From Octopus vulgaris (taxonomy: Eukaryota), in assembly GCA_951406725.2 (NCBI GenBank), contig OX597816.1, forward strand, positions 108,686,001-108,750,000: a stretch of DNA of 64,000 nucleotides, written 5' to 3'. Within the stretch, counting starts at the first letter, position 1; each line of letters starts with the position of its first letter. Shown here one piece after another: positions 4,503-11,609 of the stretch. Made by a program: the position numbers and the translations under genes. The notes beneath the pieces were generated by a model that was not told the origin of the DNA, searched no databases, and was given only the letters and a program-made list of their open reading frames with translations.

Positions 4503-4644
4503 TTGACTTAACAAACAAAAAAACAAGTAATGTTATTTTATTCTTCAAGTTAACTTCAGTTATTCAAGATTCGTGCTTGGCAGTGGCAACAAGAAACTTA
4601 AGTAACTTGCTGAAGTTTATCACATACACACACACACACACATT

Positions 4645-4700
4645 CTTTTATACCTTTCAGCCCAAAGGCTGTGGCCATGCTGGAGCAATGCCAGTGAAAA
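4645..4700 (-). mobile_element. SINE/LINE-type 3' tail attached to the 5S copy
   Basis: Minus strand gctccagcatggccacagcctttgggctgaaaggtataaaaga matches the tail of SINE family A (gctccagcatggccgcagtcaaatgactgaaacaagtaaaaga). Confidence 0.65.
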
Positions 4701-4708
4701 TGTGTGTT

Positions 4709-4815
4709 GCTTACAGCACCTAGGTTTCCCAAACGGTCACCCATCTAAGCACTAACTAGGCTCCACATTGTTTAATTTCCGCAATCAGATGAGAACTGGT
4801 GCATTCAATATGATA
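4709..4815 (-). pseudogene. 5S rRNA-derived sequence (degenerate, lacks ~10 nt at the 5' end)
   Basis: Plus strand gcttacagcacctaggtttcccaaacggtcacccatctaagcactaactaggctcc...tcagatgagaactggtgcattca aligns colinearly with the reverse complement of metazoan 5S rRNA, with many substitutions. Confidence 0.85.
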
Positions 4816-7230
4816 CACATACACACACAATTACAGCATTGAAGGCATATAGCCACTCAAAAACTGTAAACATCGCTTAAACATTTATTATTGGGTATCA
4901 AAATTTTCATCACACTAACTGCAGCCTGGTCACTGACACAGTTCAACTGCGACACAGTTTTTGATAAAACCACTAGCCAGACAAATATATCTCTGACATA
5001 GAGATAAAGTATCCAGGTAGGTACCATACAAGCAATCAGTTATTATCTGGATTATAGCTAACTGCATCAAGTCTGAATTTCCAATCACAGGTTTTCTGTT
5101 GTTTGATCCACTAAATTATCAAACTCAATGTATGAGTATGTAAGAGGCTGAGTATTCCATACACACATTTAGCCTTAGTTTAATTCTCAGTGGAATCAGC
5201 TTGGCATAGGGTGGCAAGGCAGAATGTTTGAATTACAGGTACAATCCGTCCAGTGGATTTCTTCAGTTTCCATCAATTCAATTTCCCTCACAAGTTTGTA
5301 GAAAATGACATGCCCAAGATGTCAAGCAGCCGGTTCAAAACCAAGACCTCAGGATAGTGAAGCAGCAACCACATAACCATTCAGTCATACTATACCTGTG
5401 TAAGTGTGTGAGTTAGTGCTTAGGGTGTTGGATTCATGACCATAAGATTGTGGTTTCAATTCCTGGACCAGGTGATGTACTATGTTCTTGAACAAAACAC
5501 TTCATTTCATGTTGCTCAAATTCACTCAGCTAGCAAATATGAGTATTCCTGCAATGAACCAGCATCCCATCCAATGGGGAAATACATATGCCAGGGAATA
5601 TGGGAAACCAACCCTATGAGTCTATAGAACTCAATAAGGAGCTATACCCTTTTCTATACTACACCTACAGGTATAAATATGTCGTAGATCAAATTTTTAA
5701 TCGAGTACTTTCAATGAAAATATATCAGACCTTAGAAGAGTTGAGATACGTAGCGTACAACTTATGTATCCATTATTCATATGTATATCACTTGTGAATG
5801 CATATGGATTTTTTTCAATAGCTTTCTCACCAAACTGAGCACTTAAGTGATTTAAAACAATTTTAGTGAGAGAAAGAGGTGGTGATTTAGAAGAATGGTT
5901 AAAGTAGCAGACAGCATGCCTTTGCAGTGTTTGCTCTGTCTGTGAAGCTCTGAATTCAGATCCTGCCAGAGTCAACTTTTGTGGCTACTTTGTATTATAT
6001 ATCTGAGAATTTTCCTTTCCATCTCTTTCCTTCTGACAGTTGTTGTAGCTCTAAAGTTATATTTCATATTGAGCACTTCCGTGAAAAAAATAATATATCA
6101 TTTTTTTTTAATACAAAATTGAGACGTGTGTTATGAAATGCATGTGTAGGTGTATGTAATTTAGTATTTTGTCTCTGCCCCCACTTCTACCTTTTATGGA
6201 AAATACTAGAAGCAACAAAAATTTTCTTTTATAAACAATAAAAACAAAACAAAAACCAATGCTACCATATTTCTGTCGACATGGCACCAGCACTGAAACT
6301 GGAGTTTTAATACAGCTTAGCAGAGGAAATATGCCAGACAAATACACATGCAAGAATGTGTGACTGTGTGCATCGACAGAATTTTAAGTTTGTGTCTACC
6401 TCTTTGTATGAGCAACATATGAGAGAGAGAGAGAGAGATATCAACAGTGAACACATACATCAAATTCCCACACAGAAATACACAAAGATATATGATGCAC
6501 ATATACACATATATATATACAGGCTGCACATACAGATGTATTTTATGTGTGCGTATGTATACATGCATGTGTGTTTAAATTGTAAATATTGATTATTGAC
6601 AAACTGCATATAAATGGTCCATATCCAATGATAGAGTCTTTAACTGTAACAATGTTTTGATTGATTTTTATTGTTTTTTTTTAATTTTTAAAGATGAGCA
6701 AGGATAAAGAATGATGGGAGAATTCTTCTAGGGTTATAAGATATCCCGCCAAAGAGACTACAAAGGTTGGCCTTCCTTCTTTACCTCTGCCCACCACCAC
6801 CACCACATAGAATATGAATAGCTGCTAAATCTTCCTCAAATCCCACCCTAAAGGTCTTAGGTTCAGAAAAAAGTATAATGAGGTTACACATGTCCCCTAA
6901 AAAGAGATAGAATAGATATAGCTGGAATATTTTTGATCACAGACTTGCTTGATCAAGGGTGACCTGTGATTAAAGAACTGAATATAGATGCAAAGCATGT
7001 TTACATGAGCCTGTACATGTTCAGTCGACTTGCTAGAAATAACAACAAAATCTTTGTCAAACTATGAACTACCATCTTAAAAAGGACACACTGGATAATA
7101 TAGTCCAGGTCACAACTATATCTGAAAATATAAGGAGGATGGCTTGAATACCCTTGATTATAGATATGCTTGCTCAGGACAAGCCTAGGGCTAAACAACA
7201 TATTCACACACAAGCCAAAGAAGAAACTGC

Positions 7231-10036: not shown

Positions 10037-10676
10037 ACAGGCTTCTTTCAGTTTCCTTCAACCAAACCCACTGACAAGACCTTGGTTGGCCCAGGGCTAT
10101 AGTAGAAAACACTTGCCCAAAGTACCACACTGTGAAATGAACCCTTACTTACACAAGTGGAAACACCCTTACTTGAAAAAACAAATAATATGCATCATCT
10201 AACCCGAGGGGTCAGCAAACTAGGGTAAATTACTCCAGCTGGGTTAAAAATGAAATTCTTGGGGGTAATGAGGACCCATTAGACATAAGTAAAATTATAT
10301 AAAAGAACGTGTTTCTTGTTATGACAGAAATTTTTTTTCTGGCTCTGAGGGGGCAGTCAAAAAGTTGCTGCCTTTGGCAACAACCTACCTTTGTGAACAA
10401 GGATTTTCCACTCTAATGAACATGAAACAAAGTAAAGAAATTGATTGGACCCCCCCCCCCGAAAACTGTATTCAAATTTCTCTGGCATCAAAATGTACCC
10501 AATTTTGATGTAATTGTACAAAAACAAAACATTATTTCTCCAAAGCCTAAAGTGAAAAAGTTTCTAGAAAAATCCTCATTTTATATTTATAATTGTACTC
10601 TCCATATAAATAGATTCAATAAGCCTTTTGAATTCAAAGAATCTATGATTTTCTTCCTTTCAAATCAAGGGGGTAA

Positions 10677-10727
10677 TCATCATCGTTTAACGTCCGTTTT
10701 CCATGCTAGCATGGGTTGGACGGATGG
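10677..10727 (-). mobile_element. RTE-type LINE/SINE 3' tail fused to the U6 copy
   Basis: CCGTCCAACCCATGCTAGCATGGAAAACGGACGTTAAACGATGATGA; the same tail recurs at ~57376-57434 and in degenerate form near 47940-47985, 53365-53430 and 60765-60890. Confidence 0.75.
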
Positions 10728-10796
10728 AAAATATAGAACGCTTCACGAATTTGCGTGTCATCCTTGCGCAAGGGGCCATGCTAATTTTCTCTGTAT
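10728..10796 (-). pseudogene. RNU6: U6 snRNA retrocopy, 5'-truncated (ACAGAGA box to 3' U-tract)
   Basis: Minus strand reads ATACAGAGAAAATTAGCATGGCCCCTTGCGCAAGGATGACACGCAAATTCGTGAAGCGTTCTATATTTT, nearly identical to the conserved 3' two-thirds of U6. Confidence 0.93.
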
Positions 10797-11609
10797 GGTA
10801 AATATGTTTTGGGGTAATTGTTTAAAAAAAGTTCCCCGAACCCTGATCTAACTCATGCTACCCTGGGAAACAGACAGGAATAATTATATAGGCGTGTTTT
10901 TTTGGGGTTTTTTTTTAAAGATCATAGTCATTCATCCGTGATCATACTGTCTTTTTCATGTATAGTGTTTTTATCATTGATGCTTAGCTCCAAATTAGCC
11001 CTGATCCTCCTATGCTTTCCGATAGTGAACATACATTATACAACTTGACCGCCAGCTTTTAGGACGGTAGGGAGTAAGGTTGAGGAGAAATTAGCTGCTA
11101 TTTCTAGCAGGGTGGATTTCTTTGTTTTCATCGATGCTGGTTGTTGTTAACATGTCAGCTCACATCAACCTACGATAATTATGGCGTTCCAGCTATGACC
11201 ATCCAGTTTTTTAGGGAGATATGTAAAACCAATTTAAATAAGTTCTTTCATTTTTACCACGTGAGTTGTGATTTGCGAGAGATTTGGCTGCTATTTCTAG
11301 CACGTAAAGTGACCACATAAAAGCTCCGTTTGTTTTCGTTTATAGCAAGATGATGGTAGTACTGATGGTGAATTGGAAGGGTACAAATGTAGGTGATGGT
11401 AAAGAATACGCACACCAGGTGTTTAGGGTAGGGTAAGGAGTGAGGGTTTTTGTTACGTCGAAAACTGATGGTGTGCGTATTCTTTACCTCTGCCACAGAT
11501 GTAATACGGGTTAATTAAATGGAGATATTTTCTCCCTATTTACTGTGTTGGATTGGGGAAGTTCCTATACATCGAGGAACGGTTTTAGCTACTTTTAAAT
11601 CGGATCAAT

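Follow-up and report, generated by a model that had tools for sequence, protein, structure and literature searches.

Within the window, which is the whole 64,000-nucleotide stretch of Octopus vulgaris DNA analysed here, the 120 bp at 10677-10796 on the minus strand are, judged from their sequence, a single retro-insertion in which the 3' part of a U6 snRNA has been fused with the 49 terminal nt of a LINE of RTE type. The fusion probably arose during reverse transcription, with the LINE enzyme leaving the end of its own short template and jumping to the U-rich 3' terminus of U6, and the low divergence of the insertion suggests that it is young. The genome-wide set of chimeras described below matters more than this one locus.

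The U6 part occupies 10728-10796 (minus strand; Rfam U6, 70.8 bits against a cut-off of 44, E 6.5e-16) and runs from nt 39 to about nt 106 of the snRNA, ending in four T. Its real similarity to U6 begins at the ACAGAGA region, and an alignment of these 69 nt with a U6 gene copy from the same genome (L070) shows two substitutions and one inserted base. The Rfam match and this alignment confirm the first-pass annotation, which had read a minus-strand U6 truncated at its 5' side from the ACAGAGA box. In addition, a local alignment of the insert with U6 starts at U6 nt 36, and a possible extension to that nucleotide, with one mismatch, would carry the U6 part up to 10799. U6 transcription uses an upstream promoter. 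Because both this promoter and the U6 5' stem are absent, the copy is predicted to be inert and is probably dead.

The other part of the insert, the 49 nt at 10677-10725 (minus strand), matches the 3' ends of further copies of the repeat (L037-L040) at 100% identity. It is predicted to fold into a nested stem-loop with its base a few nucleotides away from the junction, and a short GAT repeat comes after the stem-loop. A retroposon 3' end of about 50 nt with a hairpin and a GAT tail had been proposed here and is borne out by this identity, the fold being a prediction. The inner helix is paired in 90-98 and the outer helix in 77-97 of 99 tail copies, with one A-T to G-C change of the inner helix in 7, these copies being chosen by likeness and compared without a shuffle control. 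The two parts had been described as joined directly, but two bases (10726-10727, minus strand), which by alignment to L070 match neither U6 nor the LINE tail, sit between them and are likely to be untemplated additions by the reverse transcriptase.

A 27-nt part of the tail has 9,161 exact matches in the genome, against 0 for a reversed control. Of 30 tail copies picked in their order along the genome, 29 extend at least 110 nt upstream and one stops within 50 nt, and the sequence upstream leads to reverse-transcriptase coding sequence. A SINE was rejected as donor, as the tail belongs to the long 3' UTR of a LINE; 16 of the 20 LINE copies with the best protein matches end in this tail. In three LINE copies (L350-L352), a single open frame of 1,087-1,101 aa ends about 190 nt before the tail hairpin. 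The 1,095-aa frame of L350 carries the Pfam domains Exo_endo_phos and RVT_1, together with a PHD-like stretch that scores under the cut-off, and the only other plus-strand frame upstream is one of 151 aa. The C-terminal motifs of the protein are of a kind that we take to be RTE. The donor is therefore probably an autonomous, single-ORF LINE of RTE type, with the type drawn from architecture and from these motifs, the homologues carrying no clade names. The RTE-clade partner named by the first-pass annotation is upheld to this extent, by a single ORF with endonuclease and reverse transcriptase and by a 3' end made of a stem-loop and short repeats. L350-L352 appear to be young copies with intact RTE-type ORFs, and the PHD-like finger inserted in their reverse-transcriptase region is common to many homologues. 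A Pfam search for reverse transcriptases returned mostly CR1-type copies, and none of its 30 loci and 15 further copies ended in the tail of 10677-10725.

The insert lies in a multi-copy, non-autonomous repeat resembling a DNA transposon (10205-10845), which has an 8-bp duplication on either side (10197-10204 and 10846-10853) whose two copies agree at 7 of the 8 bases. The duplication fits the hAT-like label given to this host repeat earlier, a label that we assume on the strength of those 8 bp. Just outside the repeat, an older and decayed copy of the RTE tail lies on the plus strand at 10847-10875 (79% over 29 nt), which apparently served as the landing site of the hAT-like element.

The insert had also been described as flanked by a GGTAA target-site duplication, and both 5-mers (10672-10676 and 10797-10801) exist in the window sequence. 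The host copies speak for another reading. In most of 19 host paralogues compared, the stretch from the left junction to the resumption of host sequence is about 12 bases longer; some have other small deletions or divergence, and none has the empty form with a single repeat. In pattern counts across the 2.8-Gb genome, 40 empty host copies have the long form, with about 12 more bases, against 0 single-repeat empty sites with a gap of 0-6 bases. Loose-end reads from four public runs, which are paralogous, have the long host form too. The duplication is thus unsupported, and it was rejected as the likelier reading because the empty host copies are about 12 bases longer; it is likelier that the insertion deleted about 12 bp of target. 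A private deletion preceding the insertion, which would rescue the duplication, is decidedly unlikely. Because the long form prevails at empty sites, the right 5-mer (10797-10801, plus strand) is best read from the paralogues, the pattern counts and the L070 alignment as two insert-derived and three host bases: three of the five belong to the normal host sequence, and the remaining two could be either U6 nt 37-38, with one change, or untemplated additions. The left 5-mer (10672-10676, plus strand) is, from the window sequence and the host paralogues, host sequence at the 3' junction, with one base common to it and the GAT repeat. The earlier view that the 120 bp represent one insertion event survives without the duplication that was offered as its evidence, as the host repeat resumes on both sides and the paralogues lack both parts. 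Among 36 chimeras with short tails, flank matches average 7.2 nt against 4.6 nt in shuffled pairs, and the long matches are nearly all at microsatellites.

An exact U6 27-mer occurs 166 times in the genome. The first 100 listed of these matches, together with 13 other loci, gave a sample of 113 loci that is confined to copies with the exact 27-mer and in which the labels of 34 loci were set by eye. Chimeras account for 95 of the 113, or for 90 events once a tandem duplication is collapsed, and in 94 of the 95 the partner has the orientation of U6 and starts at the U-tract, which supports a single event. The partners comprise the starts of full-length SINEs from three families (40 loci), internal SINE positions (6), an inverted SINE (1), tails no longer than about 50 nt, from six families (45), and internal RTE positions (2), and the last locus (L079) is a U6-U6-tail tandem. 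Two of the six tail families trace to LINEs whose proteins we take to be of CR1 type. In the two main SINE families, U6 is joined at the SINE start in 39 of 45 cases, compared with 68 of 148 other copies that keep the start (Fisher p 8.6e-7), a control in which diverged starts may be undercounted. The U-tracts at the joins range from 1 to 8 T, with 4-5 T in 34 of 68, and the base that follows (n=68) is C in 33, A in 33 and G in 2; some of these C bases could derive from the partner or from the flank of a U6 gene.

The 18 non-chimeric loci consist of a six-copy gene array, 5 copies with shared flanks, 2 hairpins and 5 others. The array (L069-L074; C1, 139.42 Mb) is made of likely U6 genes at a spacing of ~1.1 kb, and shared AT-rich flanks or an inverted hairpin structure were seen at L030, L146, L167, L168, L176 and L189. 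A separate tandem repeat of ~20 kb (L063-L068; C1, 132.42-132.53 Mb) has amplified one U6 chimera six times. Two U6 5' variants occur in the genome. None of the 30 best-scoring U2 copies was chimeric by eye, a weak control since the best-scoring copies are genes.

Joins to the RTE family itself are varied. Five U6 copies are fused to it by five different joins: L001-L003 join U6 at the base of the RTE stem-loop, each differently, while L026 and L144 join inside the 3' UTR. A search with the junction pattern matched only the locus at 10677-10796. Of 30 copies of one CR1-type family taken without selection, 20 break off no more than about 20 nt from the stem, and these 20 short tails include two with a U6 head and one with a tRNA head, all as judged by eye. 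This LINE family (L254-L283; C1), with 5,047 exact tail matches, consists mostly of tail-only insertions of ~50 nt that have a near-fixed 5' boundary (20/30) and often lie in TA microsatellites. Three loci (L077, L143 and L356) have three parts, with U6 or 5S preceded by the 5' fragment of a SINE and followed by a complete SINE, and either serial jumps or insertion into a SINE would explain them.

Other small RNAs head the same kinds of partner. Outside the 5S gene cluster lie 13 of 47 scored 5S copies, at 12 loci, and all 13 are fused; the scored copies are the best-scoring of many candidates, and those examined are full-length by selection. At 11 of the 12 loci the 5S is fused to a SINE start or a short tail, with partners common to U6 in at least 10. 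A 5S head is also found on the same RTE tail as the insert (L032). The remaining locus (L201/L202, C25) is a 5S-5S tandem followed by other sequence, which by eye resembles what is presumably a Penelope-type reverse transcriptase. Most dispersed 5S copies retain a 3' trailer like that of the cluster genes. Furthermore, a 113-nt tRNA match at L270, long enough for an intron and followed by a T-ending trailer, heads a tail. Two further tRNA-like heads, at L041 (on the same RTE tail) and L283, were seen by eye only, drew no call from ARAGORN or Rfam and were left out of the counts. ARAGORN found no tRNA in the SINE heads, which we take to be tRNA-derived.

Priming of reverse transcription at the target (TPRT) is established, and a sequence of steps can be proposed for the jump at 10677-10796. 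The enzyme would bind the stem-loop tail and prime at the target, where the tail and the base shared with the GAT repeat are observed. It would then copy about 50 nt and reach the 5' end of a probably trimmed RNA fragment; the boundary is observed and would mark a discrete fragment. A few untemplated bases would be added, some of these would pair with the oligo-U terminus of U6, and copying would go on; the two extra bases are observed, and the pairing is modelled on the biochemistry of R2. Finally, copying would halt about 69 nt into U6, and the end would be joined with a loss of about 12 bp of target, as the paralogues suggest.

The chemistry of RNA ends bears on this reading. Unprocessed Pol III transcripts start with a triphosphate, the U6 cap is a methylated triphosphate, and precursors end in a 3'-OH oligo-U. 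RtcB requires a cyclic phosphate and a 5'-OH, and it gave no full-length product with a 5'-triphosphate partner (PMC6789731). Given these needs, joins to SINE +1, U6-U6 and 5S-5S joins and precursor heads point away from ligation. The R2 enzyme adds mainly untemplated A, and jumping needs such additions (PMC8857657); additions of this kind would favour U-ended acceptors. An enzyme paused in the middle of a template does not jump (PMC8594491). U-tracts of 1-8 T and extra bases at the junctions fit jumping. Several points weigh on the other side. The argument assumes the 5' chemistry of SINE RNAs in octopus and treats the behaviour of the enzyme by analogy, an internal-fragment donor at this locus could carry a 5'-OH, and U6 is frequent among the heads, as ligation predicts. 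The four-T tract here matches the ligation products of PMC6789731, and the 34 of 68 tracts with 4-5 T are compatible with ligation. With balanced dNTPs, moreover, the overhang is often too long for jumping, and a physiological role has been doubted (PMC8857657).

The main rival is ligation, in which RtcB would have joined a mature U6, with its cyclic phosphate, to a fragment of the LINE 3' UTR bearing a 5'-OH, the hybrid RNA then being retrotransposed. This route has been demonstrated for human U6/L1 (PMC6789731), and it is favoured by the four T, by the internal-fragment donor and by tract lengths that peak at 4-5 T. However, ligation products are mostly precise, whereas two extra bases occur here and a C-run at L003. 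A precise join from U-tract to partner was not found at the insert, where the two extra bases intervene, with later mutation possible. Ligation also leaves unexplained the SINE +1 joins, the U6-U6 and 5S-5S joins and the occurrence of 5S and tRNA precursors as heads of the same tails, and it is an unlikely origin for this insert. Between the two mechanisms named by the first-pass annotation, RtcB ligation and template switching, the genome-wide pattern favours template jumping and RtcB less so. Both main routes, jumping and ligation, may operate in the octopus genome.

A switch within the template is very unlikely. A stalled cDNA would have come off its template partway along and annealed again, through microhomology, to U6, or a patch of U6 would have been used in repair of the 5' junction. 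The target deletion and the 5' truncation do make for an untidy 5' junction, and a SINE fragment lies upstream of the U6 or 5S head at L077, L143 and L356, but the joins involve the very 3' termini of the head RNAs and fixed positions in the donors, with no scattered homologies. Two separate insertions, with a LINE tail entering the T-tract of an existing U6 copy, would agree with the fact that an orthologous empty allele was not seen for the locus; with 94 of 95 partners in sense at the tract, U6 gene context absent from the flanks and the host repeat resuming directly around the 120 bp, this is extremely improbable. The chance that the insert belongs to a U6-headed SINE family is negligible: an automated Octopus vulgaris annotation from 2026 lists SINE classes 'U' and 'U-L1', without discussion in its accessible text (PMC13282606), but this option, raised in the earlier annotation, fails because the junction is seen once, the five U6 copies on the RTE family show five joins, other copies of U6 with a tail join elsewhere and the upstream U6 promoter is absent. 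The 'U' and 'U-L1' labels, along with many predicted U6 and 5S genes, may themselves represent one-off chimeras.

End-to-end jumping therefore stays the preferred reading of the insert, and a wider proposal can be put forward tentatively, at slightly less than an even chance. In octopus, reverse transcriptases from two or more LINE clades would jump end-to-end routinely in vivo, from the 5' ends of whole SINE RNAs or of a protected tail fragment of ~50 nt, to the oligo-U termini of RNAs made by Pol III (U6, pre-5S and pre-tRNA), sometimes serially. If this is true, the genome holds hundreds of fossils of ligase-independent jumping and of head gain by SINEs. Because many ends are expected to be unsuited to RtcB and young partners are known, ligation and jumping can be directly tested against each other with an RTE or CR1 enzyme.

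The locus appears to belong to a described class of U6/LINE chimera, with only the lineage being new. In opossum, 5'-truncated U6 is found with RTE_Mdo and RTESINE1, without duplications; in Anolis, U6 occurs with RTEX-2, L2 and AnolisSINE2; and 40 chimeras that join U6 to L2 or Mon-1, for the most part truncated and containing short pieces of the LINE, come from platypus (Doucet et al., 2015, PMC4476161). As in those genomes, a 5'-truncated U6 stands ahead of a short stretch of LINE 3' sequence that ends in simple repeats, target duplication is absent or very short, several LINE clades take part in one genome, and template switching has been proposed there too (PMC4476161). With L1, by comparison, a target-site duplication is usual. 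Unlike the chimeras covered in that work, those of octopus come from an invertebrate, number about 90 events in a partial sample, include about 40 joins at full-length SINE starts, show tail joins clustered at the base of the stem-loop and have 5S and tRNA precursors on the same tails (PMC4476161). The earlier remark that no description was known for this lineage stands in part: no cephalopod U6 chimera was found described in the open-access literature, while subscription papers, Repbase and the consensus library of PMC13282606 may hold one, and U6/RTE chimeras as such are known from vertebrates (PMC4476161).

Comparison with other systems is similarly mixed. The octopus chimeras share the U-tract join and the sense orientation, and this insert the four T, with the human U6/L1 pseudogenes attributed to RtcB (Moldovan et al., 2019, PMC6789731). 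The human cases, however, have full-length U6, variably truncated partners and precise joins, whereas extra bases, and many ends expected to be unsuited to RtcB, are seen in octopus (PMC6789731). In primates, one LINE, L1, likewise captures many small RNAs, among them 5S, tRNA and U3 (PMC11838501). The 5S and tRNA pieces reported there are mostly truncated and antisense, with twin priming proposed, whereas the octopus 5S copies examined are full-length by selection, in sense and mostly trailer-ended (PMC11838501). The Bombyx R2 enzyme connects the 5' end of its template to the 3' end of another RNA by way of untemplated bases and makes serial jumps, as would be the case here; it belongs to another clade and was studied in vitro, whereas the octopus events are known from genomic footprints alone (PMC8857657, PMC8594491). 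SINEU and snoRTE also carry a small-RNA head on a LINE tail, but with uniform junctions in many copies, whereas the junction of the octopus insert is unique (PMC4758252, PMC7245038).

The window contains a second chimera on the minus strand at 4640-4826, in which a diverged 5S rRNA copy and a short trailer are followed by a tail of ~50 nt that resembles CR1-type modules; its 5S head and tail are also given at 4708-4826.
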